A stretch of 64,000 bases of DNA from Myxococcales bacterium UBA4248 (GCA_002395385.1 DGWW01000147.1:1214-65213), one strand, 5' to 3'; positions 1 to 63,663 are shown, counted from the stretch's first letter. The notes: generated from the letters alone by a model not told the origin. Made by a program: numbers and translations.

Positions 1-420
1 ATTCTATCGGGAGAATTCCGAAATGAAAACCATGAATACCGACAGTACTCGCGCCTTATACGGTGGCCGATAGACCCAAAGACGCACCGTCTCGTGACGG
101 ATGACAAGGGGATCGTCACAGCTACGGCAGCCTGGTATACAGGAAAAGGCGGTGTTCAGGGGGCAAGTTCACATACAGAAAATGGAAAAACAACATTCTA
201 TCTCAATGGATTTCACAACAAAGACACTAAAACAGATGGTTTGATTGTCGCTGCCGCCGATGCCAAAACCAACACCAAATATTTAAATAAAGAAGGCAAA
301 TGGGGCTACGCACCACAGGGCATGTACATTACAACGACAGACATGATATGGACTGTCTGTGAAAAAAAAGGAGAGCACCGCATTCTCTTTTATGCAGATC
401 GCAAAGCAGTCAAGCCATAA
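1..420 (+). CDS. hypothetical protein, 5' partial. The frame is open from the window edge and the listed ORF 94..420 is its C-terminal part
   Basis: Frame 1 has no stop from base 1 up to the ORF at 94..420. There is no RBS before the internal ATG at 94. No recognisable domain. Confidence 0.3.
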   Translation: MLSGEFRNENHEYRQYSRLIRWPIDPKTHRLVTDDKGIVTATAAWYTGKGGVQGASSHTENGKTTFYLNGFHNKDTKTDGLIVAAADAKTNTKYLNKEGKWGYAPQGMYITTTDMIWTVCEKKGEHRILFYADRKAVKP

Positions 421-661: not shown

Positions 662-690
662 ACAAAAAAAAGCGCCCCGAGGGGCGCCTC
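662..690 (-). terminator. Rho-independent terminator for the minus-strand gene 706..2730
   Basis: Hairpin GCGCCCC-GAGG-GGGCGC, followed on the minus strand by a run of 7-8 T residues. Confidence 0.6.
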
Positions 691-705
691 TAAACAATCA
701 TCGAA

Positions 706-2730
706 TTAGTTTGCACTTCCGGCTTCGAACACGAACGGGTATTCGATCTGAACGATACCGCCGCCCTTAGGAGCCGGGAATCTCCAGAATTTAATGGAGT
801 TCACGACACAGTTTTCGACGTTTTTATTCTTGATAGTCGATTCTTTTACAAGCGCCTTGGTGACGGCACCCTGTGGTGAAATCAGCCAGACGACGACGAC
901 ACGACCATTAAGACCTTTGATCTTGTTCAATTCTTTTTCGTAGCAGGCACGGAGTTCACCGGAGTGCTGACGGACGACTTTCTGAATAATACGTTTATCG
1001 AGAGCACCGGTAACTTCGGGGTTCTTCATTTTAACCTGAGGACGTGCCTCACCTTTTGCACCGAGGTTAGCGTTGTAGCCCTGGGAAGCGGTACGAATAG
1101 CGCCACCGCCGCCACCGCCGCCGGGGCCGAAGCCGCCAGCACCGAATCCGCCCATACCGGCACCGCCGCCGCCTGTACCGCTGGCACCGAGACCGTAACC
1201 AGCCGATGCAGCCTGAGCAGAAGCATCGAAGCTCGACCAATCGAGGTTATCGAGATCCATCGCATTACCGACAGCCAACATGGAGTTCATGGCGTTGGCC
1301 TGAGCCAAAAGACCGGTTGCCTGAGCAGCGCCGACAGCCTCACCTTTGGACATACCTTTACCCGGTGTAGAAGCATCATTGGCAGCAGTATTTGCAGCAA
1401 AAGGCGTATCGGGAGCATCCTTAGTGAGTTCCTGATCTTCTTCGGGTTCTTCTTCTTCGGGTTCTTCTTCTTCCTGCATTTCTTCTTCGGGTTCTTCGAC
1501 GACGGGTTCTTCAACGACGACAGCAAAACGCGAAGTATTGAGGATACGGTCGACCATCAAAGCATCGACACGGTTTGTAGCGAACAGAATCACGGAGAAG
1601 AGTGCGAAGTGGATGAGGAGGGAGGCGACCAAACCGCCGTAATTGGACGAAGAGAGGCTGAACAGAGGTGCGGCAAAAGGAACGGCATCGACGAAGTGGA
1701 CGAGGATAGAGACTTCACCGAACACAAATTTTGCACGTGTCTCGCCATTTACTTCGCATGCCAGCGATCCCGGAGGAAGTGGCACGGAGCTGCGTGGGGT
1801 ACGGAAATCGGCACTGCTGGCGGATGCGAATGGGATCTTGTTATTGCCAATGAGAACAAACCCTTCATAAGCGTTATTAAAGAGCAGTTCCCATTTTCCG
1901 CCGATGCACTGAGCGACAGCAATTTTACTGGTGTTACCAACAACAACTTTATAATTGCAGGTAGAATCACTGCCTACGGTCACAGTCGTACCGCTCGAAG
2001 CAGGATATTGATCGATACTGAGCACGGTATCGCGCCAAACCATTGCAACTTCCAGTTTACAGTTTGCAGACTTTCCGCGAGCGGAGAGGAAGCGGCGTTC
2101 AAAGCTGACGGGGCGTTTTTTCTTACGAATGATGGTTGTTGCAGGTGCAGATGACTGTGCAAACTTGCCCATACCGGCAGCAGCAGCACCGCCACCGAAG
2201 CCAGCGGCTTTAGCAGCAGGTCTGGCAGCAGCGGGAGCAGTAACCGACGGTGCGGGAGGTGCAGCGGGTGCAGCGGGTGCAGCCGGAGCGGGGGGGGCAA
2301 CGGGAGCAGCCGGAGCCACGGAAGGATCAGCGGCAGCCATTTCCTGCAACACAGGTGTAGGAACGGAGAGCGTCGCATGATCGCCGTCTTCGCCATCCAT
2401 CTCACTCAATTCACTGATGCCCATATTCATCACATCCTCGAGTACGAGACGAACCGAAACCTGACCAAAGCGCAGAATCGCACCATTCGTCACCATGACG
2501 GGTTTTGTCGATTCAACTTTCTGCTGATTGACAAAGGTACCAGTCTGGCTAATGCGATCTGATAATTTATAACCGTTGGAAACTTTCTCGAGTACTGCAT
2601 GTACGCGCGAAACAGAGTCGTCATTCAGGCAGAGTTCGCAGCTCGCATTTTTTCCGATGCGAATGGGATTGGCATTGCTCTCCACTACCTGAAGCACCTC
2701 AAAATTAGGTCCAAGAACCTCAAATTTCAT
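706..2730 (-). CDS. FHA-domain membrane protein with a Pro/Ala-rich linker, an acidic repeat, a Gly-rich region and a C-terminal TonB-C-like domain (GltG/AgmX-like)
   Basis: The N-terminus has an FHA signature (GKNASCELCLNDDSVSRVHAVLEK...). There is one TM helix (GLVASLLIHFALFSVILFA). The C-terminus (...NKNVENCVVNSIKFWRFPAPKGG...EYPFVFE) is TonB_C-like and paralogous to the C-terminus of 63118..63663. Confidence 0.85.
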   Translation of the reverse strand: MKFEVLGPNFEVLQVVESNANPIRIGKNASCELCLNDDSVSRVHAVLEKVSNGYKLSDRISQTGTFVNQQKVESTKPVMVTNGAILRFGQVSVRLVLEDVMNMGISELSEMDGEDGDHATLSVPTPVLQEMAAADPSVAPAAPVAPPAPAAPAAPAAPPAPSVTAPAAARPAAKAAGFGGGAAAAGMGKFAQSSAPATTIIRKKKRPVSFERRFLSARGKSANCKLEVAMVWRDTVLSIDQYPASSGTTVTVGSDSTCNYKVVVGNTSKIAVAQCIGGKWELLFNNAYEGFVLIGNNKIPFASASSADFRTPRSSVPLPPGSLACEVNGETRAKFVFGEVSILVHFVDAVPFAAPLFSLSSSNYGGLVASLLIHFALFSVILFATNRVDALMVDRILNTSRFAVVVEEPVVEEPEEEMQEEEEPEEEEPEEDQELTKDAPDTPFAANTAANDASTPGKGMSKGEAVGAAQATGLLAQANAMNSMLAVGNAMDLDNLDWSSFDASAQAASAGYGLGASGTGGGGAGMGGFGAGGFGPGGGGGGGAIRTASQGYNANLGAKGEARPQVKMKNPEVTGALDKRIIQKVVRQHSGELRACYEKELNKIKGLNGRVVVVWLISPQGAVTKALVKESTIKNKNVENCVVNSIKFWRFPAPKGGGIVQIEYPFVFEAGSAN

Positions 2731-2825
2731 TATTTTATCCTCATCTCTTGCGTCAAAAAAAAGCGCACGCCCACATGATACCTGCTAGGCATTTTTAGTG
2801 GTTTACCAATATTCTTTAATGTCGA

Positions 2826-3062
2826 TTAGAGTTCGTCTACAGTTTTACGCATTTCATCGACGAAATCTTCTCGGGCCTTAATCAGGCTCGACAGCTCATC
2901 GAGTTCTTTGACATTGATGTTCGTCGAATTCGGAACCATCAAGTCACCTTCGATACGGTCATCTTCGAAACTGATTGTCTGCATTTTGGCTTCCTGTGCG
3001 AAAGCTGTACCGCTACCGAAAATGACACCCAAAACGATTGCTGCACCGATTAATTTTTTCAT
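2826..3062 (-). CDS. small secreted protein (about 78 aa) with a signal peptide
   Basis: Internal ATG at 3062 is preceded by an AAGGAG RBS. Signal peptide MKKLIGAAIVLGVIFGSGTAFA. The longer listed ORF 2826..3134 lacks an RBS. Confidence 0.55.
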   Translation of the reverse strand: MKKLIGAAIVLGVIFGSGTAFAQEAKMQTISFEDDRIEGDLMVPNSTNINVKELDELSSLIKAREDFVDEMRKTVDEL

Positions 3063-3179
3063 AATATTTCTCCTTATATGAGACACCCCCAAATATCTCA
3101 TAACATATTTTTGCTCATGTGACAAGACAGACATTTATGGAACCAGAAAGACCAAACAGATGCATGTTCTGGCCCGCCA

Positions 3180-5525
3180 TTATTTGGCTTCGGGCTTTTT
3201 AATGCGATCATAACCGGATTGTTTAAGCGTAAACGTTCCCTTGGCATCGAGTCCAACATCAAATGTGTATTTGCGCGAAGACTGAAGTTCCTGTTCCTGG
3301 CCGCCTCGAACCGGTCGGAGGTTGCCTTCCGTTCCCGTTGCACCGAGAAATTCCCAATCCGGGCCAGAAGGCACGGTGCTTTCCTGCGTCATGTCCGGGC
3401 AAATGAGTTCACCCGCACGGCGAAGGCAAACGCGCAATCCTTCTTCGGAAGAATTGAATTTTACGATCGATTCACCGATCGATTCACGCAAAAGGTTGGT
3501 ATCGAGGTTGAGCGAACCAAAGCCATCGGGAATCACAGAAACCTGGAGCGGCAGACGCTGATCATGGGTAATGTAATACTCGATGATGTCACCAGGCTGA
3601 ACGGTTGCAACAATCGGGCGAACGTAATCCTGACCGCCTGTCGAAATCTTGAGGCCGTAGGGTTTTGAAGAGGGGGCAAACTTTTTGAGTGCACATTTGG
3701 TCCCCATCAGAGCACTGTCTTCCGGGACGAGGGCCGGAATGGTGACCGTCGTGTCCGGATGAACCGGCCAAATGATGTGCATGTGCTTGGCAAAGCCCGG
3801 TTTTTCAATTGTGAGCACGTGCGGCCGGCCGAGCACTACTTCAGAAACGGCCGATGGGAAATTGCCAATGGCACGACCGTCGAGCATGGCTTTGAGGCCC
3901 ACACCCTGATTGCTGATATCCGTCAGACGAAAATCAATCCGGCCTTTGAGATAGAGGGAATCCGGGATCATTTCGATCTCGATGGGACCGGTGACATCGG
4001 TTTTGGAATCGAATGTCTTAAAGAACGGCACCATACCATCCGCATACGCCATAATGGTATTGCGGTGATTGGATACGAATTCAAAACTGCCTGTCGGTGA
4101 AACCTCAACGCCGTTGATGAAAATCGTGCTTGCCCCACCCGTCTTGATATTGACTGGATAGGTGCTGAGATGAACTTTTTCGACGACGGGTTTTGGAACT
4201 TCAACCACCTCTTCCTGTTTTTTCTGCTGCTCAGCCTGAATTTCAGCTTCGGACGGTCCGCTGAACGCCAGGAAATAAAAGCCAACGCCTGCGGCCGCAA
4301 GAACAAGAATAATAATGATCGCCAAAACGGGCCCGCCGGAATTCTTTTGCTGTGTCATACCAGGATTACCGTACATTTCCATCAGCTCCCTTTGTTTTGC
4401 ACGTCGCTGTTCTGCCTCAGCCTGCTGTTGCTGAAGAGAATATTGCTCATATTCAGCTCTTTCTTCGGGGGTCATTGATTCATAAAGTGCCATCAGCTGC
4501 TCTTCATCCGAGAGTTCACGCTGAGGTGCTGCCGGCTGTGCATACCCGGACGGAGTCTGGGGCACCTGAACCGAAGGGGCAGCAGGGGCAGCAGGCGGCA
4601 TCTGGACAGAAGGTGTTGCGGGAGCTGCGGGCGGCATCTGAACAGAAGGTGTTGCGGGAGCTGCAGGCGGCATCTGGACAGAAGGTGTTGCGGGAGCTGC
4701 AGGCGGCATATGAACAGAGGGCGTTGCGGGTGCCGCAGGTGGCATCTGAACCGATGGTGAAGGATGGGGCGCAGACGGCATCTGAGTGGATGGTGTCGCC
4801 GAAGCTGCATTCGAAGCCGCCCCAGTCCCGGGAATCGGAATTGGTTTGGACACCGGCGTTGCTGCAAGTGCCGCTGCCAGTTCTGCATTCATAAACGGGG
4901 ATTCAACCATTTCCGTTTTTGACGAATCGGCAGAAGGCATATCAATCGCCATGGTCTCATCTGTCGCGGCTGCCGCAGGTACGGCCGCTGGTGATGCACC
5001 ACGGATAATGGGTACGCGCTGGGAAGGAATATTAAATTCGGATGCAGGAGTGATCGAAGACGATCGATTGGTCACAGTCGTCATTTCATCATCAAGCGCC
5101 ATCAAATCATCCAGAGACTCCGCAATTGAACGGTTTTCGGATGTCACATACGCTGCACCTGCATCTTCGGGGACATTGTCCCAACCGTCGATCCCTCCCA
5201 CAGCCGCAAGGATATCGTCAGCTGAACGTATATCGGTCGGTTCATCCGATGTCATGAAATCAAGCGATTCCATTTCGGAAATAGCACTCGAGCTTTGATT
5301 GCGATTCAAAGCACCAATTTTAGGAATGCTGGGAAGGCTTGCGCCATGAATACTTGGCATATTCTTACCCGACTTAACTCTATATTCACCCATAATGACT
5401 AACCTTCTGGAAAAATTTACCAATGAACGTGCAAAGCGTCGTCGCATCATGCCACAAAGCATCATTTCATTCAAGTCGAATGCGATCTCAAAAAAAATGG
5501 TTTTGTTGCCGAGGCTATTTGGCAT
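3180..5525 (-). CDS. Pro-rich repeat membrane protein with C-terminal PEGA-like domains. Alternative start near 5395 (MGEYRV...) with a GAAGG RBS
   Basis: Six tandem copies of the repeat PSVQMPPAAPAT. Coiled-coil/Gln-rich segment, one TM (VLAIIIILVLAAAGVGFYFLAF), then PEGA-like beta-rich repeats (VLTIEKPGFAKHMHIIW). Confidence 0.8.
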   Translation of the reverse strand: MPNSLGNKTIFFEIAFDLNEMMLCGMMRRRFARSLVNFSRRLVIMGEYRVKSGKNMPSIHGASLPSIPKIGALNRNQSSSAISEMESLDFMTSDEPTDIRSADDILAAVGGIDGWDNVPEDAGAAYVTSENRSIAESLDDLMALDDEMTTVTNRSSSITPASEFNIPSQRVPIIRGASPAAVPAAAATDETMAIDMPSADSSKTEMVESPFMNAELAAALAATPVSKPIPIPGTGAASNAASATPSTQMPSAPHPSPSVQMPPAAPATPSVHMPPAAPATPSVQMPPAAPATPSVQMPPAAPATPSVQMPPAAPAAPSVQVPQTPSGYAQPAAPQRELSDEEQLMALYESMTPEERAEYEQYSLQQQQAEAEQRRAKQRELMEMYGNPGMTQQKNSGGPVLAIIIILVLAAAGVGFYFLAFSGPSEAEIQAEQQKKQEEVVEVPKPVVEKVHLSTYPVNIKTGGASTIFINGVEVSPTGSFEFVSNHRNTIMAYADGMVPFFKTFDSKTDVTGPIEIEMIPDSLYLKGRIDFRLTDISNQGVGLKAMLDGRAIGNFPSAVSEVVLGRPHVLTIEKPGFAKHMHIIWPVHPDTTVTIPALVPEDSALMGTKCALKKFAPSSKPYGLKISTGGQDYVRPIVATVQPGDIIEYYITHDQRLPLQVSVIPDGFGSLNLDTNLLRESIGESIVKFNSSEEGLRVCLRRAGELICPDMTQESTVPSGPDWEFLGATGTEGNLRPVRGGQEQELQSSRKYTFDVGLDAKGTFTLKQSGYDRIKKPEAK
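4562..4760. repeat. about 5.5 tandem copies of a 36 bp unit inside the CDS (encodes PSVQMPPAAPAT repeats)
   Basis: Unit ctgcaggcggcatctggacagaaggtgttgcgggag, repeated nearly perfectly. Confidence 0.85.
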
Positions 5526-6032
5526 TTGCCAAATACGCCTTCGGCCGCGCCGCTATTGACATACGCGGCGCATACTTTTTTGACACAGGCTATGTCTGAC
5601 CATCGTGGATAAATATTGTTATTTAGTTTTCGGCATTGCATATTTCAAAATTTTGGGATTAGAACTTTGAGCGGCGAATTCTGTCTCGATGCTCCACCAC
5701 CCAAAATTGCAATTTCCCGTATAAAACCCTCACACCAGGCAGAAGACAGATGAAAATATTCTTTTGGGGAATTGTGTTTTTTTAAGCTCTGTTTAACGAG
5801 TGTGGATACACTTGAGCATGTAGCTCATAGCTTATAACTTATAGTTGAGAAATCATTTCATAGGAATCATGCTTTTCCCCACGAGATTTAGATTCCTTCT
5901 ACAAGCTAAAAACGAAAAGCAATAAATAATTGAGTTATCGGAACCAATCATATCCACGGTGGTTAAACACAGCCAAAAAAAAGCCCCGGCAATTGCTTGC
6001 CGAGGCTTTTGAACTCGATTTTTTACACGGTA

Positions 6033-7784
6033 TTAACGACCGCAGCGTGAAGAAATATAGTACCAGTAATATCCGAGCTCATCCTTCCAATACTCGCCAT
6101 CAAATGTCCAGAAGAGATGCTCATCATCGGCACCCATAACTTCATCGACTTGACGTTCGAATTCGAGCAGGGCATTGGGATCCTGTTCCATCAACTCGAC
6201 ACGTGCCGCATATTTCTCGGTTGTTTCAATTTCGATATCGAGTGCACGGTTGGAGAGGTCGCGGAGTTCTTCCTGAAGTCTTTCGAGACGTGATTTACCT
6301 TTTTTACCTGCTTCAACGACGGAGAGCATGCGTGCAGCTTCCAATTCCTGAACCATGGTCTGTCCAAGCGAGGATCCCGAAAGCGCAGGATCTTTCTGAA
6401 TGGTAGCTTTTTCATCATCGAGCATATCGATGTAGGCAAGACCACGTCGGAGTTCACGGTCCTGAACAGAGGCTTCGAGGATCAGCTGCAGTGTAGGATC
6501 GTAGGATTCTCTGTCGGCATTCTGAACCATGTGGAGGAAGTCATAAACTTCTTCGGGCTGGAACAGACGGGAAACGAGCGTGTCAACCTGTTTTTTCATG
6601 GGATCGTAGGTAGCTTTGTAATCCGCAAGAATGTCGACGACGCGATCATAGTGGCAGTTGGTGTAGTAAATGGTAGCCTGAAGAAGACGTGCTTCGGGAT
6701 AATATTTATCGCTGAAGTACGGGCTGTTCAGTGTAAGGAGAAGACCGAGTGCCTTCCCGAAATTATCTACACGATAATAAGCCCAGCTTGCTTCAAAGAG
6801 GGCATCGAGCCACATGCGGCTGTCACGTGAGAAAGCATTGTAATATTTGATGGAAGTAGACCAGCTATTGGCAGCCTTTTCACGTTCACCCATTTTCCAC
6901 AGTGTGGAGCCGACCTGATAGAAGACGCGGGCGAGTGCAGCGTATGTGTATTCGCGAAGACGGGATTCTTCTTTTGTGAGGCCTTCAGCAGAGGTAGATT
7001 TTGTATCGAGCCATCGCAAAACCTCTTTGAATGAATCGAGTGCGGGCTGACCTTTATTCTGACGAACATAGGTCACGCCTTCGAGGTAACGCGATTTGGG
7101 ATACAGCGGGCTATCCTGTGCAACCGAGCCGACGAAGAAAACGACATCATCGAGTTTTGACTCGCGGTATGCGGCCATGGCGAGGAGATATCCCACTTCG
7201 GATGTCAGAGCAGCCGGAACTTCAGCAGGGAATTTATCGAGGTAATTCTCATAAATACGGGCATATCTTCTCGGTTCACCGGGAAGAACACGTCCAATCA
7301 GAACGAGGTAATTGAGTGCCAGGTCGAATTCTTTTGAGCTCGGTCCCTGAGAGACGACCATATCAAAATGGTTCAGAGCTGACTGATAGTACTTGGCTTC
7401 ATAGAGGGCGCGTCCCAATTCATAATGAAGCTGTGCGGACATACCGACAGAAGCACTGTCTCCGGCAGCGATCGTGTCATTCAGGAGCTGAGCAGCCTGA
7501 ATGTAATTACCCGATTCGATCATCGCCTGTGCCTGTGTATAGTTTGCATACGCACCTGAACTTGTATCGATCACGGCCGGGGCTGTCGTGGTGGAAGCAC
7601 CGCCACCTTCAGACCCGAAATCGAGCCCGCTTCCGGAGCCCTCAGCTGCCGCAGAGTTCTCAGTGGACCCCTCATCACCAAAATCCAAACCACCATCCTG
7701 AGCCTGTGCACTCAATGGTGCGAACATCATTGCACCAGCGATTAACACTGCACTTAAGCCTAGCTTCCCACTCTTCAGATGCAT
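6033..7784 (-). CDS. secreted tetratricopeptide (TPR) repeat protein
   Basis: Signal peptide MHLKSGKLGLSAVLIAGAMMFAPLSAQA. Multiple TPR-like Y/A/L-rich helical repeats. Confidence 0.8.
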   Translation of the reverse strand: MHLKSGKLGLSAVLIAGAMMFAPLSAQAQDGGLDFGDEGSTENSAAAEGSGSGLDFGSEGGGASTTTAPAVIDTSSGAYANYTQAQAMIESGNYIQAAQLLNDTIAAGDSASVGMSAQLHYELGRALYEAKYYQSALNHFDMVVSQGPSSKEFDLALNYLVLIGRVLPGEPRRYARIYENYLDKFPAEVPAALTSEVGYLLAMAAYRESKLDDVVFFVGSVAQDSPLYPKSRYLEGVTYVRQNKGQPALDSFKEVLRWLDTKSTSAEGLTKEESRLREYTYAALARVFYQVGSTLWKMGEREKAANSWSTSIKYYNAFSRDSRMWLDALFEASWAYYRVDNFGKALGLLLTLNSPYFSDKYYPEARLLQATIYYTNCHYDRVVDILADYKATYDPMKKQVDTLVSRLFQPEEVYDFLHMVQNADRESYDPTLQLILEASVQDRELRRGLAYIDMLDDEKATIQKDPALSGSSLGQTMVQELEAARMLSVVEAGKKGKSRLERLQEELRDLSNRALDIEIETTEKYAARVELMEQDPNALLEFERQVDEVMGADDEHLFWTFDGEYWKDELGYYWYYISSRCGR

Positions 7785-7903
7785 ACCTATGTCTCCTTAG
7801 CTATCAGCACCATGCTGATGACCTCATTTCAAAAACTGGTATTAAGCTGCCGTAATTGCTACGTCGCAATTTCTTTTAACATGTAAAGACATTGTTTGTC
7901 AAT

Positions 7904-8680
7904 CTATGCCTTAACGAAATTATCCCTTTCATCTTTCCCGGCTGCAATCAGATTTAGACACTCGGACGCGACCCTGAGTCCGAATGTCCCTGTCACAGTT
8001 ATCAGACTGCCCAGTACCGGACGCGCAATTTTCAGACTTCCGTTATGCGACTGCAGGGATCGATGTGTTTCTTTTTGTGCAGGTTCCCGTGAATAGACGC
8101 ATCCAACCCCCTGTGTGACCCCAAACGCGCGCAGGCGCTTGCGTACCTCCCGCGCCAGAGGACAGATTTCTGTCTCCGAAATATCCGCAAAACACACTTC
8201 GGACGGCTTGGTTTTTCTGGCTGCCCCCATGCTCGAAATGACCGGAATCCCAGCCCTGACGCAATGTACGATCAACTCGATTTTTGCATCAATCGTGTCG
8301 ATCGCATCCACAACGACGTCCGGTTGCCTGCCATCCGCAAACGGGGCATCCACCACACTCACATTGGAAGCATCCACGACAGCATCGACGCATTCCACTG
8401 TTATCCCCGGATGAATCGCGCACAAATGGGATTTTGCAACCAATACTTTTGACATTCCCAAAGTGTGTTCATCCGAACCGAGCTGGCGGTTGATGTGATG
8501 AACCGCATAGACGTCGCCATCTACGAGACGAAAAAAGCCCACGCCGCTGCGGGCGAGCGCTTCGGCAGCAAAGCTGCCAACCGCGCCATACCCCACAATA
8601 CACACGTGAGCATTCGAAAAGCGCGCCAGCATTTCATCACCAACCAGCACGCTTACCCGCGAAAATCTTTCGTCACACAT
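7904..8680 (-). CDS. tcdA: ThiF/HesA-family E1-like enzyme, likely tRNA threonylcarbamoyladenosine dehydratase TcdA
   Basis: Rossmann motif VCIVGYGAVGSFAAEALARSGVGFFRLVDGD. About 258 aa. Its start overlaps the upstream stop by 1 nt (TAATG). Confidence 0.65.
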   Translation of the reverse strand: MCDERFSRVSVLVGDEMLARFSNAHVCIVGYGAVGSFAAEALARSGVGFFRLVDGDVYAVHHINRQLGSDEHTLGMSKVLVAKSHLCAIHPGITVECVDAVVDASNVSVVDAPFADGRQPDVVVDAIDTIDAKIELIVHCVRAGIPVISSMGAARKTKPSEVCFADISETEICPLAREVRKRLRAFGVTQGVGCVYSREPAQKETHRSLQSHNGSLKIARPVLGSLITVTGTFGLRVASECLNLIAAGKDERDNFVKA

Positions 8681-9780
8681 TACGGCAGAACGAGGGAGAT
8701 TTCGACGCGATCATTCTTCGCCCTGTTGTCCTTCTGTTTTTCATCATAACGCTGGACATCTTTTCCTTTTGCCGTCGTCATCATGCGTCCGTATTCAACA
8801 CCAAGCGAGACCAGGTAATCACGCGTGGCATCACAGCGCCGCTGGCTGACTTCAAAATAATTTTTCGTGTTTTTCTGTACATGGCCTTCGATCATAACCG
8901 TCTGCACATTATACTTCTTGGCGAGTTCGGCGATGCGCTTTAAAGCCTCCTGTTTGACGGGGAGAATCTCGCTCTTATTCTTTTCGAATGCGCTGGCGAG
9001 TACGATCACGACACTCTTCATATCGGTGAAGACATAGTCAGGTCCAACGATGGCCTGAGCATCGGTAAAGAGTGCTTTTTGACGCTCAGCGGACTGTGCC
9101 TGTGCCTGTTTTTTATCGAAATCGGGCTTAGCCTGTTCATAGGCCTTGGCAAAAAGTTGGCGTGCCTCTTCGGCAGCAGCACCGGCGCCGTCACGGTCAC
9201 CGTGTGAGCTCTTGTCACCGGCTTCTTTCAATTTGGCTTCTGCAGCAGCAAACACATCTTTCTGTGAATCCTGTGCGCCAACACCGGCAGCCTTTTCTCT
9301 TTCTGTCATGGCTGCCTGAATGCGGTTTTCGACATTGGCAATATCTGTATCGGAAATATTTTGTTTAATCAGGCCGACACTCTTGGTCAAGCCTTCATAT
9401 TTTGCATTCAGGGTTTCCATCTGCAATGTGGTTTCTTTGATTTCTTTTTCGGCAGCAGCCTGGCGTTGTTTTGCTTCATTGGCTTTTGCCATAGCACGTG
9501 CCGTCGCATACTGGCGCTGTCCGAGAGCGGCATACGTTTTGGCCTTGCTCTGTTCGCCATCCTGCCATGCATTGAGCGATTTATTCGTCAAATCGGTGCA
9601 AACTTTGTAAGCATCCGGAGCCTGGGTATTGATCTGCGCGGCTTCATCGCTATTGCGGAGCTCTTCGAGCTGTGTCAGCTCGGCGGGTTTATTCTGGGGA
9701 CCACAACCAGACAGAATGCCAAGGGCAGCCACACTACATAATGCCAACTGGAAAATTCTATTCTGTTTCATATTCCGCAC
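8680..9780 (-). CDS. OmpA-family lipoprotein with a long coiled-coil
   Basis: Lipobox LSGC after the signal peptide. C-terminal OmpA-like peptidoglycan-binding domain (...DATRDYLVSLGV...RVEISLV). Confidence 0.8.
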   Translation of the reverse strand: MRNMKQNRIFQLALCSVAALGILSGCGPQNKPAELTQLEELRNSDEAAQINTQAPDAYKVCTDLTNKSLNAWQDGEQSKAKTYAALGQRQYATARAMAKANEAKQRQAAAEKEIKETTLQMETLNAKYEGLTKSVGLIKQNISDTDIANVENRIQAAMTEREKAAGVGAQDSQKDVFAAAEAKLKEAGDKSSHGDRDGAGAAAEEARQLFAKAYEQAKPDFDKKQAQAQSAERQKALFTDAQAIVGPDYVFTDMKSVVIVLASAFEKNKSEILPVKQEALKRIAELAKKYNVQTVMIEGHVQKNTKNYFEVSQRRCDATRDYLVSLGVEYGRMMTTAKGKDVQRYDEKQKDNRAKNDRVEISLVLP

Positions 9781-9782
9781 CC

Positions 9783-10238
9783 CTACTTCTTCATGCTGTC
9801 TGCTTTCGATTTAAGAACATCCTCTTCGGCCGTCAGCTGCTGCACCTGAGCTTCGAGCTTGCCGTATTCCGCCTTCAATGCTTTCAGTTTGGCTTCCGCT
9901 TCCATTGCTTTGCCCATTTCAACATCACGCAGCATGGATGCTTCAACGAAATCAATATAGACACCAAGCTTGAGCACGAGCGAGCTGACTTTTTCTTTCT
10001 CTTCTTTACCAATTAAGATGAGAGCTTCATCGATCCAGCTCGAAATCTGGGACATTTCGCTGTTATATCGTGCCGTATCGCCCGTTTTGATCTTTTCTAC
10101 CCGGAGCTGATACTGACGAACATCATCCCTCAACACCTTAATATCCTGAGCAAACACCTGGGAAACAGGGATGCTCATAAAAATGCCCAATCCCAGAAGG
10201 ACTCCTCGTCCTAAGCGCTTCAAATTCTTCTCAGACAT
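9783..10238 (-). CDS. secreted coiled-coil protein
   Basis: Start MSEKN at 10238 with a GGAGA/AGGAG RBS. Signal peptide ...LLGLGIFMSIPVSQVFA. Heptad-rich sequence. Confidence 0.6.
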   Translation of the reverse strand: MSEKNLKRLGRGVLLGLGIFMSIPVSQVFAQDIKVLRDDVRQYQLRVEKIKTGDTARYNSEMSQISSWIDEALILIGKEEKEKVSSLVLKLGVYIDFVEASMLRDVEMGKAMEAEAKLKALKAEYGKLEAQVQQLTAEEDVLKSKADSMKK

Positions 10239-10582
10239 CACAATCTCCTCTGCATGATTTATCAGCCTCACCATAAGGCTTTAAACAAGAGACACGGATA
10301 CTTAGCGCGAAATATCCCCAATTTCAACATTTCTCTGCGACCTCCGAAAAAACACACAAATAAAAAGTTATGTACAAACACCGCATAGCCCCCATTTATC
10401 CATGATTCAGATTTTGCAATACCCACTTTTTAGCCCCTATCATTATATATATGCAAATGAGCCAAGCCAGGGTGAAGCAGACGCATGCTCATTCTTGCCG
10501 GGGGAGCAGAAGACTGGCGTTTGGCGCATGCATAACCATGAAAGCAAGAGACGTGAGCAGTCACCCCGGATCCCGAGCCGGC

Positions 10583-10900: not shown

Positions 10901-11263
10901 ATGCCCAAAGTGATGATTTTAGACAATCAGCTTTCGGATGTTTTCGAGCTGGAAGATATTCTAAAAGCGGCGGGGTACGAAGTATGCTCTCTGACAGGGC
11001 CGTATGGGATTCTTTCGAAATTTGATTTTGAGAAACCCGATATTCTCCTGTTCAACCCGGACATGCCGAACGTCGATACAGATACCGTCCTGTCAACGCT
11101 CATGACGGCTTCAACCATGTCCAAAATGATTGTTGTACTGCTATGCAGCGGTGACGAAGAGGCAATCGAACAGTACTGCAAGCAAATGAACCTTCATGGT
11201 TATTACATGAAGGAGTCAGGCTATGACCAGATCGTCGATTATCTGAAGCTGTTTTATCAATAA
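10901..11263 (+). CDS. stand-alone receiver (REC) domain protein, apparently degenerate (pseudo-receiver)
   Basis: CheY-like fold pattern. ILDNQ replaces the DD pair and LLFNPDMPNVD puts Asn at the phospho-acceptor position (by-eye alignment). The conserved Lys is present (YYMKE). Confidence 0.65.
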   Translation: MPKVMILDNQLSDVFELEDILKAAGYEVCSLTGPYGILSKFDFEKPDILLFNPDMPNVDTDTVLSTLMTASTMSKMIVVLLCSGDEEAIEQYCKQMNLHGYYMKESGYDQIVDYLKLFYQ

Positions 11264-11333
11264 AAGAATTCAGTTATTGGTGCGATCTCCGCTCCGTTTT
11301 TAGTTTACCAGCAAAACGAGGCAACCCTAAGTC

Positions 11334-12404
11334 ATGAATGCGCAACGGCTTGGCCCCTATCTTCTGCTCAAACGTCTTGGCATAGGCGGTATGGCTGAGA
11401 CATGGCTGGCTGCGCGTCAGATTTCGACAGATGTGATCAAATTTGTAGCGCTGAAATGCATTCTGAGTGCATACAATGCCATTCCCGACTATATCCGTTT
11501 ATTCTATCGGGAAGCGGCCATCAGCCTTGCCCTTGATCACTCCAATATCATAAACATCTGGGACTGTGACGTCATAGAGGGACGCCATGTCATGGTCATG
11601 GAGTTTATGGAAGGTGTCACGCTCGATGCATTGCTCAAGCGTGCGCCATGTCATCAGCTTACGCCCGAAATTGCATCGTATATTGCGCTGGAAATTTTGA
11701 ACGCCCTGTCCTACCTTCATTCGCTGCAGCAAAGGGATGGCACGCCTCTTCACATCATTCATCGCGACATCAATCCCCAGAATATTTTTATTTATTACGA
11801 TGGAAGGTGCAAGCTATTCGATTTTGGCGTAGCCCGGACAGGATCCTTTGAAGATGATTTGCAGCAGGGCATGCTCGTTGGCAAGCCTGCTTACATGAGC
11901 CCCGAACAATGTTACGGAAATGCGTTGGATCCCCGAAGTGACTTATTCTCACTCGCCACGGTGTTATATGAAATGTCGACGGGGCATTCTGCTTTTGGCA
12001 GTGACAATGACATCAAAACGCTCAATGCCGTCATGACTCAGAATCCCGTTTCACCGTCAGCGCACAACACCATTTTTCCTTCATTTCTCTCGCGCATCAT
12101 CATGAGAGGGCTTGAAAAAGATCCCAGCCATCGCTACGCGGATGCCAATGCATTTATTCAGGATCTGGCGATGTTCCGAAAAGTGACCGGAAATTCCGGC
12201 GGACAGACGATTCTTCAGGGATGGATGTCTGCACTGTTTGCAGATGAAATCTCGCAGTCCAAGGCTTACCTCACCCAGGTTGCATCCGATTTGTCGCAAA
12301 GTGCCCCCACTCTGGATGAACTCATCGCATCATCCCAAATGCTCGACTCATTCTCGGGCACAGGGGGCAGCCTTCAAATAACAATGTCAAAGCTGCCATC
12401 CTGA
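11334..12404 (+). CDS. Ser/Thr protein kinase (Hanks-type), cytoplasmic, with an atypical catalytic loop
   Basis: Motifs LGIGGMAETW, VALK, HRDINPQN (Lys of HRDLKPxN replaced by Asn), DFG, YMSPEQ. Confidence 0.9.
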   Translation: MNAQRLGPYLLLKRLGIGGMAETWLAARQISTDVIKFVALKCILSAYNAIPDYIRLFYREAAISLALDHSNIINIWDCDVIEGRHVMVMEFMEGVTLDALLKRAPCHQLTPEIASYIALEILNALSYLHSLQQRDGTPLHIIHRDINPQNIFIYYDGRCKLFDFGVARTGSFEDDLQQGMLVGKPAYMSPEQCYGNALDPRSDLFSLATVLYEMSTGHSAFGSDNDIKTLNAVMTQNPVSPSAHNTIFPSFLSRIIMRGLEKDPSHRYADANAFIQDLAMFRKVTGNSGGQTILQGWMSALFADEISQSKAYLTQVASDLSQSAPTLDELIASSQMLDSFSGTGGSLQITMSKLPS

Positions 12405-12476
12405 AAATGAAATACTCGAGGTAACCGTTGAGCCCGTATGCTATTTCTAAAGCCTCGAGGTTGAATCATTATAAGG

Positions 12477-12612
12477 CATGGGGCAGAAGTGGCTCAGACA
12501 CAGAGCTTTAGCGATTGTCGGGATTCATGTTTTTCCCTGAGAATACTTACTGTTGCCTACAGCCTGCTGCCCGGTTGACTCAGCCTCATTCCTTAAGATG
12601 AGATCATAGGGG
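12477..12612. repeat. roughly 120-135 bp repeated element, copy A (copy B at 54199..54337)
   Basis: About 80% identity to 54199..54337 (acacagag..tagcgattgtcgg..catacttactgttgcc..ctgactca..gacatagg). Confidence 0.7.
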
Positions 12613-12724
12613 CTGAACAGAAACCGGGATTGCTTGAATAATTGCCTCATGCGAGTTTAATCGTTACATTATGTTGCCAATGTTTTTATGGCGCGGTAAA
12701 ATAAATAGCCTTTAACTTTTCGTT

Positions 12725-14944
12725 GTGTTGGATAGTCCCGTGATACAGCCTAAAATTTTTGGAAAATTCATTTTACTTGAGCGAGTCAGCGTCGGTGGCA
12801 TGGCAGAGGTCTACCGAGCCAAACTTCTGGATGCTCCGGACTTTGAACGTTTTTTTGCCATCAAGCGCATCCTGCCGCATCTAGCAGCAGACGAAGACTT
12901 TGTCTCCATGTTTATTAACGAGGCAAAGCTGGCAGTAGAACTTGAGCACCCCAATGTATGCCAAATCTATGAGTTGGGACGTCTTGGCGATTCCCACTAC
13001 ATCGCGATGGAATACATTGCAGGCCGTGATGTCAAAGCCATCCAGGAATACTACCGCAAAAAGAAAAAAATCATGAGTGTCAGTCAGGCATGTTTTATCA
13101 TTGCCCAGGCGGCACAGGGGCTGGATTATGCCCATCGTGCGGTGGATAAAGACGGGCAGCCGATGGGAATCGTCCACCGGGATGTGAGCCCGCAAAACCT
13201 GCTCGTCACTTATGATGGCGTCGTCAAGCTCATCGATTTTGGCGTCTCAAAAGCAGCTCGCAAGACATCCCATTCGATGGATGGCGTGCTTAAGGGCAAG
13301 TACAGCTACATGAGCCCCGAACAGGCGATGAATCAGGAAATCGATCATCGATCCGATATTTTTGCACTTGGTGTCATCTTTTGGGAGCTTCTGACAGGGC
13401 GCAGACTTTTTCAGGCAGAAGCAGAAATCGCCATTCTTGAGATGATCTCCGAATGCGACATTACCCCGCCCACCAAATACAACAAGCTCATACCGGATGC
13501 AGTCGAAAAGATCTGCATGAAGGCACTCTCGAAAGACATTTCAAAACGCTACAAATTTGCGAGTGAAATGGTCGTCGACTTGATTGAATTTATCAGCAGC
13601 TGCAAGACACCTTTTACGCAATGGCACCTTCAGACCTGGATGTGCAAAGCATTTGCAAAGGAATTTGAAGAAGAGTGGGAGAAGATTCCCATCTTCAAGC
13701 AGATCAACACAGTCGAAGATGTCGACAGATACAACCGCGAGCATGCCAGCAGTTATACCAGCGACACAGGTTCAAAGCCCAAAGCAATTGATTCTGCCGC
13801 ATTATCCGAGGCATCACTCGATGAGCTTGAGAATGGCACTGCCCCACTGACAGAGGATGAGCTTGCCAAAGCCTCTTCGGCGAAGCTGTCGACAGTTCCC
13901 GCAGAAGTCATACGGGTCGAGGCCCCCGAAGGCGGCAAAGCCATCCCCATTGTCAAGCCACGAACAGTCAAGGCCAAGGTTCCCGAAGGTTCCGGTCCTC
14001 GCCTCGACATATCCGCAGACTCACTCCATTCCGAAGAAGATGTTGAGCTCATTCCCGAAGGGGTCGCCCCCACGGTGTCCGACCCGAACTATGTGCGCAT
14101 GAAGCGCATCGTAAGACGCGCACGAACCCGCACCGGGCTTGCGATTTTTATTATCGTGCTTTGCATTTGCCTGATGGCAAGCCCACTCATCTTCGTTTTT
14201 GACTTAATACAGCTGCCCAAACCGGAACTGAAACTCCCGACATCGGCAGAAGTCACATTTAATATTGCCCCTACCTCAGAAAAATCAGCGGAAACAGAAG
14301 TATTTCTTTATCGTTTTCCGCGGAATGCGACAGACAAGCCGGCCGAAACAGCCAAAGGCGCCAATGTTACATTTTCATCCCTAGAGGCCGGTTCGTATTC
14401 GGTCGATGTCGTGATGCCCGGGTATGAGCGCGAAACCTTCAACATTGATCTCGAAAACGGCAGGTCCCAGGCACGCCTCGAGCTTTTGCGTCCCAAACCC
14501 GTCCTAACCAAATATACGGTGAATATTTCACCGGAGGACGCCCTTCTCTTTCTCGACGGAAAACGCATTCAGGGAGCAGGAAGCACCAGAATTATTGAAG
14601 GCACCGTGGGGAATAGCTACACCCTCCGAGCCTACAAACCAGGATTTCAGCCGAAGCTGCTTGCAGGAACAATCGAAGCCGACATGAAACTCACAATGGC
14701 ACTCGAACCGGGAAGTCCGGTAACGCTCCACGTAGCATCCTCTCCAGAACATTGCACCGTCATCGTCAGCAGCAACGGCAGCCAGATTGCCAAAGGCGAG
14801 ACGCCATATAAGCTAGAAATCAACCCGCAATTGAGCGACATTCATATCGAGGTATCTCATCCCGATTACGAGAAGTGGACTCAAACAGTGTCCATCAAAG
14901 ATCTCGAAGACCCCAATATCAAACTATTTGCAGACCTGAATTAA
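12725..14944 (+). CDS. transmembrane Ser/Thr protein kinase with extracellular PEGA-domain repeats
   Basis: Kinase motifs VGGMAEVY, AIKRI, HRDVSPQN (catalytic-loop Lys replaced by Ser), DFGVSK, YMSPEQ. TM helix LAIFIIVLCICLMASPLIFVF. Three PEGA-like repeats (VVMPGYERETFNI, LRAYKPGFQPK, VSHPDYEKWTQTV). Confidence 0.9.
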   Translation: MLDSPVIQPKIFGKFILLERVSVGGMAEVYRAKLLDAPDFERFFAIKRILPHLAADEDFVSMFINEAKLAVELEHPNVCQIYELGRLGDSHYIAMEYIAGRDVKAIQEYYRKKKKIMSVSQACFIIAQAAQGLDYAHRAVDKDGQPMGIVHRDVSPQNLLVTYDGVVKLIDFGVSKAARKTSHSMDGVLKGKYSYMSPEQAMNQEIDHRSDIFALGVIFWELLTGRRLFQAEAEIAILEMISECDITPPTKYNKLIPDAVEKICMKALSKDISKRYKFASEMVVDLIEFISSCKTPFTQWHLQTWMCKAFAKEFEEEWEKIPIFKQINTVEDVDRYNREHASSYTSDTGSKPKAIDSAALSEASLDELENGTAPLTEDELAKASSAKLSTVPAEVIRVEAPEGGKAIPIVKPRTVKAKVPEGSGPRLDISADSLHSEEDVELIPEGVAPTVSDPNYVRMKRIVRRARTRTGLAIFIIVLCICLMASPLIFVFDLIQLPKPELKLPTSAEVTFNIAPTSEKSAETEVFLYRFPRNATDKPAETAKGANVTFSSLEAGSYSVDVVMPGYERETFNIDLENGRSQARLELLRPKPVLTKYTVNISPEDALLFLDGKRIQGAGSTRIIEGTVGNSYTLRAYKPGFQPKLLAGTIEADMKLTMALEPGSPVTLHVASSPEHCTVIVSSNGSQIAKGETPYKLEINPQLSDIHIEVSHPDYEKWTQTVSIKDLEDPNIKLFADLN

Positions 14945-15156: not shown

Positions 15157-16272
15157 ATGTTGAATTCTTTGAACAATAATCCCGGGTATGGAAATTTGGA
15201 CGGTATATCCGAAGAAGAAGTTGTCATCAAGGAAGAGTACGAGCCAGAGCCGGATGACTATAACTATGTACCGCAGATTCACGAAGTAGACGAAGCGGAG
15301 ATTCGCAATCTGTCCGCAATCCGCGAAGAGACCCAGGTAGACACCCGTGTCTACAAAGTCAGTGCGGCATTCCTTGTATTGGCACTCATCGGTGGTGGAA
15401 TTGGTCTTGCTGCGGCATCGCACTCTGCCTCCAAGGCAGACATTCAGCGCAAAGCTTCAATTGCCAAAACAATCAAAAATACGACAGAGACCAAGCTGTC
15501 CGGTTTTGACAAGTTCTATTCAGAATTTTCAAAAGTGGCGCAGGCCAACTACGATGAATCGAGCTTCCAAAGTGTCATTGCACAATACAGCAAGTACAAT
15601 TTTATGCTGGACATGTCGAGCGAGGTCACGTCTGAAGCCGTTTTGCTGGCAGGTGAAGCCCAGAATCCGCTCGAAGGTCTGCGTAAATATTCTGCCGACA
15701 CAATGCTTCTGACGCAGCTTTTGAGTTCCCACGTCAACGAGACACGTGCGGACTCGGATGAAATCCTCGAGCTCCAGAGCAAGAGTGACCATTCGAAAGT
15801 TGTATATGCCATGCAGGTTTTGCCGGATGCCATCCATTATCTTGCAACGGATGCCCCGCGTTCCCAGTATGCCAACGGCGTCATCGGCATCTACACCTAT
15901 CGCAGTGTCATCGAAGACGATGTCGAAGCATCGAGTGCATACAGCCAGTTAAAGGTCGATCAGAGATGGTCAGAGTGGCAGCGTTCGCGCCGCGATTATC
16001 AGCCGGCAAACAAGAAAGAGGCCATTCCAGAAGGTCTCGATCTCCCCAATCACCTGCTGTACCGCGTACTCGACCGACGTGGCAACGAATCCTTGCTTTT
16101 TGCAGACGAAGTCATCCTCGTCGACCGTTCTTTGCTCTTCGGCAAGTCGGCAAATGCCCTCGAACGCTACCAGCAGCGCAATGAGATGATCAAAGCCGTG
16201 CTCGATCGTGCAAAATCAGAAAGTGCAAGCATCGTTTCCCAACTCGAATCGTTTATTCCAAAAGATAAGTAA
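15157..16272 (+). CDS. membrane protein of unknown function, paralog A of a tandem pair
   Basis: AGGAGG RBS. One TM (VYKVSAAFLVLALIGGGIGLAAA). The C-terminal 280 aa are homologous to 16366..17667 (NPLEGLRKY.., FADEVILVDRSLLFGKSANALERY). Confidence 0.8.
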   Translation: MLNSLNNNPGYGNLDGISEEEVVIKEEYEPEPDDYNYVPQIHEVDEAEIRNLSAIREETQVDTRVYKVSAAFLVLALIGGGIGLAAASHSASKADIQRKASIAKTIKNTTETKLSGFDKFYSEFSKVAQANYDESSFQSVIAQYSKYNFMLDMSSEVTSEAVLLAGEAQNPLEGLRKYSADTMLLTQLLSSHVNETRADSDEILELQSKSDHSKVVYAMQVLPDAIHYLATDAPRSQYANGVIGIYTYRSVIEDDVEASSAYSQLKVDQRWSEWQRSRRDYQPANKKEAIPEGLDLPNHLLYRVLDRRGNESLLFADEVILVDRSLLFGKSANALERYQQRNEMIKAVLDRAKSESASIVSQLESFIPKDK

Positions 16273-16365
16273 GACCATACGGCACTTCCGTTGCCGTCAC
16301 TCCCTGATATAATCAATTTATTTAGCATTAGACGGATTCGTCCGCCCTTGTTTGCTTAGGAGGGA

Positions 16366-17667: not shown

Positions 17668-17678
17668 GCTACCTTAAA

Positions 17679-17703
17679 GCCTCTGGAAACAGAGGCTTTT
17701 TTA
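17679..17703 (+). terminator. Rho-independent terminator
   Basis: GCCTCTG-GAAA-CAGAGGC followed by TTTTTT. Confidence 0.7.
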
Positions 17704-17824
17704 TTGCCTGTTTCACATCTTTCTCCCCCGCTTCATTACCGATGATACACACCTCATCGCTTTTCTATTAAAGAGTGGGGCCGGGTTATTTCGCTGCGCT
17801 CAATACACCACGGCCTTCGACGCT

Positions 17825-18421
17825 ATGATATACGCGTCGAATTTTTTATTTGTACCTCGCTCACAAACGGCCAATGCCATGCGTATTCTGTTTTCTGCTC
17901 TCATTTTCCTTACACTTGCCGCCCTATCCCCCGCTATCGCATCTGCACATCCGGATTCTCACGAAATTATTCAGAAAATTGCGCTCGAAGAACTCGCCAT
18001 CACCAATTCCAAACTCCCCATTGCTTTAAAATTGCCCAAAACCTGGAAATCTCAGCCCACCAATGAAAACACACTGATTTTCTGGGTGCCCTACCACAAT
18101 GGTGTGATGGGACATATCGAAAAGAGAGACAATCCCATGTCCTGGAACGATTCAATCTCGTTTCTCTCCGATTTTTTTAAAACCAAATTCAAAGAGGATT
18201 CGAAAGAAACTTTCCAGTTGGAATCGGGGATTCAAGGGGAAAAAGGTACGATTTCCGGCCCCATCGGTGGCGAGGAATACAGGTTATTTGTGTGCGTCGC
18301 CCAATTAGCGGACAACACGGTAATCTTGTATTACGCTTCTGCGCCGATTCTCTGGTTCCAGGCCTACGAACCTTTATTGAATGACATCCTCAAATCTTTC
18401 CAATTGCCCTCTGCCAATTAA
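17825..18421 (+). CDS. hypothetical secreted protein. The start may be the internal M at 17879
   Basis: Signal-peptide-like MRILFSALIFLTLAALSPAIASA. No known domain recognised. Confidence 0.5.
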   Translation: MIYASNFLFVPRSQTANAMRILFSALIFLTLAALSPAIASAHPDSHEIIQKIALEELAITNSKLPIALKLPKTWKSQPTNENTLIFWVPYHNGVMGHIEKRDNPMSWNDSISFLSDFFKTKFKEDSKETFQLESGIQGEKGTISGPIGGEEYRLFVCVAQLADNTVILYYASAPILWFQAYEPLLNDILKSFQLPSAN

Positions 18422-21173: not shown

Positions 21174-21181
21174 AGCTCACC

Positions 21182-29615: not shown

Positions 29616-29702
29616 GGAGGTGTGGCTGAGTGGTCGATAGCGGCGGTCTTGAAAACCGTTGAACCTTTACGGGTTCCGGGGGTTCGAATCCCTCTGCCTC
29701 CG
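29616..29702 (+). tRNA. tRNA-Ser (anticodon UGA), with a long variable arm
   Basis: Acceptor GGAGGTG/TGCCTCC. Anticodon stem GCGGT/ACCGT with loop CTTGAAA. Variable arm GAACC-TTTAC-GGTTC. T-loop GTTCGAATC. 87 nt. Confidence 0.9.
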
Positions 29703-30705: not shown

Positions 30706-30801
30706 ATGATTTGCGACTTCATCGGAAATCATGTATGTTATTATAGTAATTGTCTCTTCTTTGAGTATTCGTTTACTCGACAGCCAATGGAGGAAATTCA
30801 T

Positions 30802-31851: not shown

Positions 31852-31867
31852 TATGCACATCCCCCAA

Positions 31868-63117: not shown

Positions 63118-63663
63118 ATGAAGCACTTACACCAAATCATGTCATTGTTGTTGGTTTTTCTTATTTCTGTTTATGCATACGGATGCGCCAATTCATCAAA
63201 AACTACCAGACATGCCGTTCCTCCAGTTGAGACGGCTCCCGCCTCTGCGGCTGCAGAAGCGAATGCAGCCAATGAACTTCGGGAAGTCGAGAATATCATG
63301 GCCCAACAGCAAAAGGAACGAGAGGCCAGACAAGAGAAAGCCAGTGAGCAGGAAGACACTGGGGTGACTTACATCCTGGATAAGGAAATCATACATGCAG
63401 CAGTTGCAGAAAACACAGAAGATCTAAGCAACTGCTATGCAAATGAACTGGAAAATACCAAAGGACTTAAGGGAACAATCACGGTCTCATGGAATGTCAT
63501 GGGGGATGGCAGGGTCTCGGACGCCAAAGTCACCGATACGACCATGAAGAATAAGAATGTCGAAAACTGCATCGTGGAATGTATCAGCAAATGGAGATTC
63601 CCGGCTACCGGAACAAAAGCATCTGTCGACTATCCATTTGAATTTGAATCATCCAAAAAATAG
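63118..63663 (+). CDS. lipoprotein with a TonB-C-like C-terminal domain, paralogous to the C-terminus of 706..2730
   Basis: GGAGG RBS. Lipobox VYAYGCAN. ..NKNVENCIVECISKWRFPATG..DYPFEFE is about 50% identical to the C-terminal 95 aa of the FHA protein. Confidence 0.75.
   Translation: MKHLHQIMSLLLVFLISVYAYGCANSSKTTRHAVPPVETAPASAAAEANAANELREVENIMAQQQKEREARQEKASEQEDTGVTYILDKEIIHAAVAENTEDLSNCYANELENTKGLKGTITVSWNVMGDGRVSDAKVTDTTMKNKNVENCIVECISKWRFPATGTKASVDYPFEFESSKK

Follow-up and report, generated by a model that had tools for sequence, protein, structure and literature searches.

Between positions 706 and 10274 of a 64,000-nucleotide stretch of DNA from Myxococcales bacterium UBA4248 (GCA_002395385.1 DGWW01000147.1:1214-65213; the whole stretch analysed is called the window), seven co-oriented genes occupy the minus strand. 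With a rough probability of 0.6, this region encodes the transducer part of a trans-envelope machine of the Agl/Glt type, which is derived from TolQRA. The GltG-, GltF- and GltC-like genes are present, intact and syntenic, and by analogy with Myxococcus xanthus the chain formed by their products would have been retained and, together with a protein here called X, would make up a remodelled Glt-type force-transducing module. The window has a G+C content of about 48%, and the identical sequence occurs within a 109-kb metagenome scaffold (ENA ERZ28612963 scaffold_270). The four genes on which the original prediction was built, all on the minus strand, lie where it had placed them; they are listed here with the other features of the locus and with a related gene from the far end of the window.

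9783-10274, minus strand: cc163, small secreted protein, probably a coiled coil (called start 10238); the conserved block begins with this gene
8680-9780, minus strand: lipoprotein with an OmpA C-terminal domain (Pfam OmpA, 4.5e-14) and an LSGC lipobox
7904-8680, minus strand: TcdA-like gene of the ThiF family, syntenic with the cluster
6033-7784, minus strand: GltC-like secreted TPR protein of 583 aa (NCBIfam gliding_GltC, 3.3e-88)
5979-6010, minus strand: strong terminator-like hairpin of 14 pairs with a T-run, directly 3' of the GltC-like gene
5450-5475, minus strand: promoter-like block CTTGAA...TTGTGGCA, which precedes the start of X by about 60 nt
3180-5525, minus strand: open reading frame (ORF) of the Pro-rich bitopic protein X, corrected to 3180-5393 (737 aa from M45)
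2826-3062, minus strand: GltF/CglF-like small secreted protein of 78 aa (NCBIfam gliding_CglF, 2.2e-12)
706-2730, minus strand: GltG-like bitopic inner-membrane transducer of 674 aa (NCBIfam gliding_GltG, 4.1e-72)
668-691, minus strand: terminator-like hairpin with a T-run after the GltG-like gene
63118-63663, plus strand: stand-alone protein of 181 aa resembling the AgmX/PglI TonB-type C-terminal domain (CTD) (NCBIfam myxo_SS_tail, 92.8 bits)

The proposed resemblance to the Glt machinery is borne out both by family models and by synteny with canonical clusters. Glt-specific NCBIfam models are the best matches for three of the four proteins, and the generic TonB/TolA proteins that might have turned out to be their best homologues did not. 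Pfam recognizes in the cluster only FHA, a borderline TonB_C, TPRs, OmpA and ThiF. The 674-aa protein aligns with gliding_GltG (NF033760, 243.7 bits), its best family match, over profile positions 23-647 of 650. Its C-terminal domain, at residues 575-674 (nt 709-1008), reaches 107.9 bits against the AgmX/PglI tail model (NF033768, myxo_SS_tail; cut-off 40), in agreement with the likeness to GltG/AgmX(PglI) first noticed, and 24.4 bits against Pfam TonB_C, just below the gathering score of 24.6; two of its cysteines, C596 and C641, are invariant in the alignment. An AlphaFold2 (AF2) model built from 49 homologues places an FHA domain at residues 1-98 (nt 2437-2730; Pfam FHA 1.4e-15 at residues 23-89) with a pLDDT (predicted local distance difference test) of about 95. 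Foldseek backs this fold, with target-normalised template modelling scores (TM-scores) of up to 0.86; the Arg of the canonical GR dyad is replaced by Lys27. The FHA domain is followed by a disordered Pro/Ala segment (residues 100-200), a second beta-rich domain predicted with confidence (residues 210-350, nt 1681-2103) that abuts the single transmembrane (TM) helix (residues 361-384, nt 1579-1650), a long, disordered periplasmic linker that is first Glu-rich and then Gly-rich, and the C-terminal domain, folded at 565-670 in the model. The FHA domain, the single TM helix and the TonB-C-like tail thus stand as described in the original prediction; the Pro/Ala linker, which it had placed after the TM helix, lies before it, on the cytoplasmic side. 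In M. xanthus, GltG has been described with an N-terminal FHA domain, another FHA domain in the centre that immediately precedes the TM helix, a linker that is disordered and a TonB-CTD (PMC11761067); the predicted model has the corresponding layout, with its second beta-rich domain at the position of the central FHA.

The other two Glt-like proteins are similarly matched. The 78-aa protein aligns with gliding_CglF (NF033764, 46.9 bits) over profile positions 32-88 of 88, CglF being another name of GltF (PMC4488436). Its gene has a strong Shine-Dalgarno site and encodes a signal peptide ending AFA/QE, followed by a strand with the motif FxxDxxEG and, at the C-terminus, by a near-invariant helix, SSLIKAREDFVDEMRKTVDEL. 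In the alignment, the strand motif and this helix (SSLIKAREDFVDEM...) hardly vary, whether a locus has gltD/gltE or X, and the gene lies directly upstream of gltG in all loci, canonical ones included. GltF has been reported as restricted to Myxococcales and Bdellovibrionales (Luciano et al. 2011, PMC3169522). The secreted TPR protein, which carries a signal peptide as well as TPRs, aligns with gliding_GltC (NF033756, 297 bits) over positions 80-619 of 622, and GltC is 68-82% identical in dozens of clusters. The suggestion that a small secreted partner and TPR proteins are hallmarks of Glt (GltF and GltC/E) fits the family assignments, in which CglF and GltC are the best matches. Upstream, the OmpA-domain lipoprotein has a long Ala/Glu/Lys/Gln-rich N-terminal region, and the coupling claimed for it and tcdA was found as a TAATG overlap of its stop codon with the tcdA ATG. 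The syntenic TcdA-like gene is only a candidate for a functional link with the cluster.

The close relatives of the GltG-like protein come from 13 species-level genomes. Twelve of these are metagenome-assembled genomes (MAGs) labelled Myxococcota, Myxococcales or Proteobacteria bacterium and one is labelled Bacteroidaceae; several of the 13 were obtained from ruminant gastrointestinal samples. The homologues of the GltC-like protein carry the labels Bradymonadales (62% identity), Myxococcota (50%), Bradymonadia (34%), Kofleriaceae and Sandaracinaceae. Judging by these depositor labels, the host is probably an uncultured, gut-associated member of the Myxococcota near the Bradymonadia. Fibrobacter, a known carrier of the Glt core complex that was considered in view of the 48% G+C and the rumen sample, was rejected, since the MAGs of the relatives bear the labels Myxococcota, Myxococcales or Bradymonadales. 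The arrangement of the cluster is not due to chance, since the same gene order recurs in independent MAGs: two of them (L005 and L020, GltG about 55% identical) have the order cc-OmpA-ThiF-GltC-X-X'-GltF-GltG, where X', absent from the window, is a shorter paralogue of X.

Other relatives display the canonical order. On a 1.09-Mb contig (L022), the genes are GltC-GltD(1150 aa)-GltE(497)-GltF(80)-GltG(695)-TPR-3679-aa TPR, and in a Bradymonadia assembly (L023) they are GltC-GltD(1082)-GltE(433)-GltF(109)-GltG(607)-FHA-less GltG paralogue(486)-TPR-3997-aa TPR. The homologues of the GltC-like protein that head these gltC-D-E-F-G clusters are 50% (L022) and 34% (L023) identical to it; over the same loci GltC shows 34-50% and GltF 35-55% identity, GltG is orthologous, and both have an FHA-less GltG paralogue nearby, as here. 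Unlike the window, both keep GltD (1082-1150 aa) and GltE (433-497 aa, NF033758), followed by a TPR protein of 3.7-4.0 thousand residues which can be considered GltI-like by its size and position, whereas the clade of the window has X (and X') and, downstream, a convergent disintegrin-repeat gene. Two gut MAGs more distant than L005 and L020 (L013 and L014; GltG 46%, GltF 69-74%) show GltD-GltE-GltF-GltG, with a TPR protein of 1141-1182 aa in first place and a GltE-like protein that matches NF033758 at about 1e-30. The GltD/GltE homologues of these four loci are mutually recognisable, and no genome of the 13 yielded both locus types. The simplest reading of these comparisons is that this clade remodelled an ancestral gltC-D-E-F-G cluster, so that X (and X') came to fill the D/E slot and the GltI-like gene ceased to be a neighbour.

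X itself is a clade-restricted bitopic protein and not a known Glt component. Comparison with its homologues places the true start at M45 (MGEYRVKSG, nt 5393). The cytoplasmic part has a conserved motif, DDILAAVGGIDGWD, a disordered Pro-rich tail with a 36-nt tandem repeat encoding PPAAPATPSVQM (5.5 copies, 85% matches, nt 4561-4759; fewer copies in close homologues) and a conserved EEQ...MTPEERxEYE segment. One TM helix (nt 4272-4328) precedes a 340-aa periplasmic region (nt 3183-4208) which AF2 models as all-beta, with about four tandem beta-sandwiches (pLDDT 93.8; predicted TM-score 0.90). The Pro-rich TM protein of the original prediction is thus present; for its periplasmic domains, PEGA-like is at most a loose label, as the match to Pfam PEGA (PF08308; E 0.023, 15 bits) stays below the gathering score of 20.8 and the sandwiches are of a generic kind, with only Ig-like, adhesin or pilin matches in the PDB (Foldseek TM-scores below 0.3). 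An exhaustive HMMER search with the C-terminal domain of X in 1.84 billion representative proteins returned only 37 clusters. The identification of X as a divergent GltD, GltE or GltJ was rejected: it has no NCBIfam or Pfam match, it is all-beta and not TPR, and it lacks a TonB-CTD. In one homologue at 81% identity (P0003), an XRE-type helix-turn-helix replaces the usual N-terminus.

The genes of the cluster are probably distributed over two transcripts, cc163-ompA-tcdA-TPR and X-small protein-FHA protein. This division is drawn from the hairpin after the TPR gene, the gap of about 590-640 nt between that hairpin and the next gene, and the conserved block upstream of X, CTTGAA...TTGTGGCA, which is kept in the window and in both loci with X' within otherwise divergent intergenic DNA. 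The block is promoter-like and possibly read by an alternative sigma factor; on inspection, the spacing of the conserved TGGCA block upstream of X did not fit a sigma-54 reading, which was rejected. An Rfam scan of the window yielded two tRNAs only, and nothing in the 640-nt gap. The neighbour downstream of the GltG-like gene is convergent.

Compared with the Agl-Glt system of M. xanthus (GltA-K and AglRQS), the locus shares the architecture of GltG (PglI), with its FHA domain, a second beta domain by the TM helix, a disordered linker and the AgmX/PglI tail; a small secreted GltF (CglF) with a strand and a C-terminal helix, encoded directly upstream of gltG; and a TPR protein of the GltC (AgnA) type. 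It differs in that the slot of gltD/gltE is held by the Ig-like array of X, that gltC is linked to gltF-gltG whereas in M. xanthus it belongs to a separate cluster (G2), that the OmpA lipoprotein and tcdA share a predicted transcript with gltC, and that the window contains no GltA/B/H/K, GltI/J or CglB near the cluster. In an AlphaFold-based model of the M. xanthus machine, the TM helix and adjacent FHA domain of GltG bind the AglR5QS motor, a strand of GltF is added to the sheet of the GltG TonB-CTD while the C-terminal helix of GltF occupies a crevice of GltC, and GltD forms a central periplasmic pillar around which GltG is wrapped (PMC11761067). By analogy with this organism (PMC3169522, PMC11761067), a proton-driven TolQR-like motor encoded elsewhere would grip the TM helix of the GltG-like protein and its adjacent beta domain, and the long disordered linker would carry the TonB-CTD-like head across the periplasm. 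There, the beta-strand of GltF would pair with this head in the manner of a soluble TonB box, its C-terminal helix would plug into GltC, and GltC would dock on the underside of an outer-membrane platform. The scaffolding provided by the GltD/GltE pillar would fall to X, with its anchor in the inner membrane, and the OmpA lipoprotein may fasten the whole to peptidoglycan.

Several observations weigh against this interpretation. All three Glt-like proteins score below the equivalog cut-offs of their models (243.7 against 650 bits for GltG, 46.9 against 90 for GltF and 297 against 450 for GltC), as is expected for a distant lineage. A split of the cluster into two transcripts is suggested by the terminator that follows gltC. 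The role given to X is pure inference from gene position. No AglRQS/TolQR motor was found among the scanned window ORFs of at least 150 aa, and tblastn gave no credible match to TolQ, ExbB, TolR or ExbD in 352 kb (the window and related loci), a weak test, made with E. coli probes; in M. xanthus, the motor is also unlinked to the Glt cluster. The 64-kb window has no match to GltA/B/H/K, GltI, GltJ, CglB, AglZ or MglA, the only related one being a weak CglD/MIDAS-like match of 57 residues at 27703-29517, and GltA/B/H/K, GltI/J and CglB were not found in the sampled flanks of related loci either. With regard to the completeness of the machine, queries with GltD and GltE from L022, L023 and L014 found no homologue in the window or in any locus of the same type; these genes could nonetheless be encoded elsewhere in the genome. 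Finally, some Glt-like clusters of M. xanthus do not drive gliding, namely Nfs, which acts in sporulation through transport of the spore-coat polymer, and G4 and G5, whose function is unassigned (PMC3169522).

The last point bears on the output of the machine. Homology to Glt does not itself establish gliding, because M. xanthus has these non-gliding clusters and because the Glt 'core complex' is found in bacteria not known to glide (PMC3169522). By analogy, the output would most likely be surface gliding or the trafficking of a surface adhesin or polymer. Gliding proper is a tentative assignment, somewhat short of an even chance, and a non-motility output at the surface or envelope is about as likely. 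More narrowly, a machine of the same type could move or organise a surface polymer or the envelope in the manner of Nfs or G4/G5, and not propel the cell. This would be in line with the several M. xanthus Glt-like clusters that have no effect on motility, with the absence of GltI/J/K from Nfs (PMC3169522) and with a window locus that lacks GltI-like, GltJ, GltA/B/H/K and CglB genes. The locus also resembles Nfs and the widespread core complex (aglRQS with gltC/D/E/G; Luciano et al. 2011) in its contiguous C...F-G genes without GltI/J/K, and in belonging to Glt-like genes with an unassigned or non-motility function. Yet homologues of D and E occur in both of those systems, and aglRQS in the core-complex cluster; the locus has neither. 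Moreover, the nearest canonical relatives have a giant GltI-like TPR gene beside gltG, the M. xanthus counterpart of which belongs to the gliding set and not to the Nfs set; that this gene is kept there favours a Glt-type ancestry. Since Nfs has been described as the closest, and a recent, paralogue of Glt in Myxococcus-type genomes (PMC3169522), a deep-branching clade is unlikely to possess Nfs proper. On balance, a purely Nfs- or G4/G5-like output is rather unlikely.

Two further explanations would deny the locus a Glt-type function altogether. One possibility is a generic envelope-integrity cluster of the Tol-Pal/TonB kind, in which the transducer would be TolA-like, the TPR protein YbgF/CpoB-like and the OmpA lipoprotein Pal-like, with no specific relation to Glt. 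A derivation from Tol-like systems has been proposed for the Glt core (PMC3169522), and the likeness to Tol-Pal and TonB-ExbBD extends to a bitopic transducer energised by the proton-motive force with a TonB/TolA-type CTD, a TPR partner and an OmpA-type peptidoglycan-binding lipoprotein; weak secondary matches to tol_pal_ybgF (3.9e-08, 33.9 bits against a cut-off of 90) and Pal_lipo (4.8e-09, 36.3 bits against 125), and a tonB_Cterm match at threshold, point the same way. Nevertheless, the models specific to Glt give much higher scores, for GltG and GltC over the full length, the Pal match remains at 36 bits against 125, so that neither the Pal nor the CpoB model is reached, and no TolQ/R/B genes were found nearby (in the window, and by tblastn with the E. 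coli probes). The transducer, unlike those of Tol-Pal and TonB, has cytoplasmic FHA domains and an AgmX/PglI tail with a Cys pair, and synteny marks the locus as an orthologue of canonical gltC-D-E-F-G loci. This explanation is very improbable and appears, from these comparisons, to be already largely refuted. Alternatively, the cluster could be the decaying remnant of a Glt system in a host-associated lineage that lost gltD/E and gltI and has no working machine left. The central pillar GltD (PMC11761067), GltE and the GltI-like gene are indeed not at the locus, and the X' of its relatives is gone from the window. Yet every ORF is intact and is conserved in many MAGs at the species level, the C-terminus of GltF is invariant, X is conserved and well folded in its model, and ribosome-binding sites and terminators are in place, so that decay is the least credible of these explanations.

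If the preferred Glt-type reading is carried further, the GltD/GltE pillar would have been lost genome-wide in the gut clade and functionally replaced by X as an inner-membrane-anchored Ig-like array, the G-F-C chain would be bridged in a different way, and the machine would serve gliding or predatory surface movement in an anaerobic bacterium of the animal gut. This extended scenario is unlikely as a whole. To our knowledge, GltD and GltE belong to the conserved core complex of every other Glt-like system described. Agl-Glt is the model for bacterial focal-adhesion gliding, and ideas on its periplasmic force path still come mainly from AlphaFold models; a variant found in nature, with the G-F-C chain kept and an unrelated membrane-anchored protein in place of the GltD/E pillar, would reveal the contacts that the machine cannot do without and the extent of its modularity. 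The locus also points to Glt-type machinery, and thereby possibly to predation or movement on surfaces, in the uncultured Myxococcota that inhabit the guts of ruminants and other animals, where myxobacterial biology is essentially unstudied; no description of Glt systems of gut Myxococcota or of Glt in Bradymonadia was found in the literature. Unless the genome-wide loss of GltD/E and the role of X are shown, the interest of the locus is mainly for specialists of myxobacterial motility and envelopes.

AgmX/PglI tails are not confined to the GltG-like protein. The second TonB-C-like paralogue reported at 63118..63663 was confirmed by its tail score (92.8 bits against a cut-off of 40), and has an N-terminal signal and a possible lipoprotein Cys. 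On the same contig, just beyond the start of the window (L001 15943-21626), two FHA-less GltG paralogues of 527 and 526 aa are 60% and 83% identical to GltG residues ~180-674. They flank a 744-aa VWA and YfbK_C protein that also ends in such a tail, which, counting GltG and the 63118-63663 protein, brings the number of tails on one 109-kb contig to five. Three ORFs of 261, 180 and 161 aa downstream of gltG in another related locus (L004) were considered as a motor and rejected, being HEAT, FG-GAP-like and of no assigned family. In one of the distant gut MAGs, a full-length serpin (L014 13940-15211, minus strand; Pfam 3.2e-91) adjoins the gltD-E-F-G cluster.

Around the cluster, the convergent gene downstream of gltG (window 1-420, plus strand; full gene L001 12311-14452, minus strand) encodes a 713-aa protein with six Disintegrin repeats (PF00200, 1.7e-33), a domain typical of snake-venom and ADAM proteins and unusual in bacteria. 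A lone receiver-domain protein and three Hanks-type Ser/Thr kinases are encoded near the cluster (10901-14944, plus strand, and 54353-55798, minus strand); their role as partners for the FHA domains is speculative. A 604-aa protein (27703-29517, plus strand) has no Pfam match and a weak match of about 57 residues to MIDAS adhesin (4.9e-10) and CglD (7.6e-07), which may correspond to an adhesin-like repeat. At 19236-24157 (minus strand), an SNF2/DrmD-like helicase (4.5e-28) beside a PglX-like N6-adenine methyltransferase (8.2e-22) looks like a DISARM/BREX-like defence pair. Long ORFs of 198-723 aa at 15157-18421, 30706-37312, 47478-51408 and 55933-58104 lack a significant Pfam or NCBIfam match, with one sub-threshold HEAT_2; the lineage is rich in orphan proteins. 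One of the two tRNAs lies at 29616-29702; the other (51985-52056, plus strand; Rfam 66 bits) is located inside the 5' end of the ORF of a Dpp5-like peptidase (51870-54131), the true start of which is therefore probably downstream.

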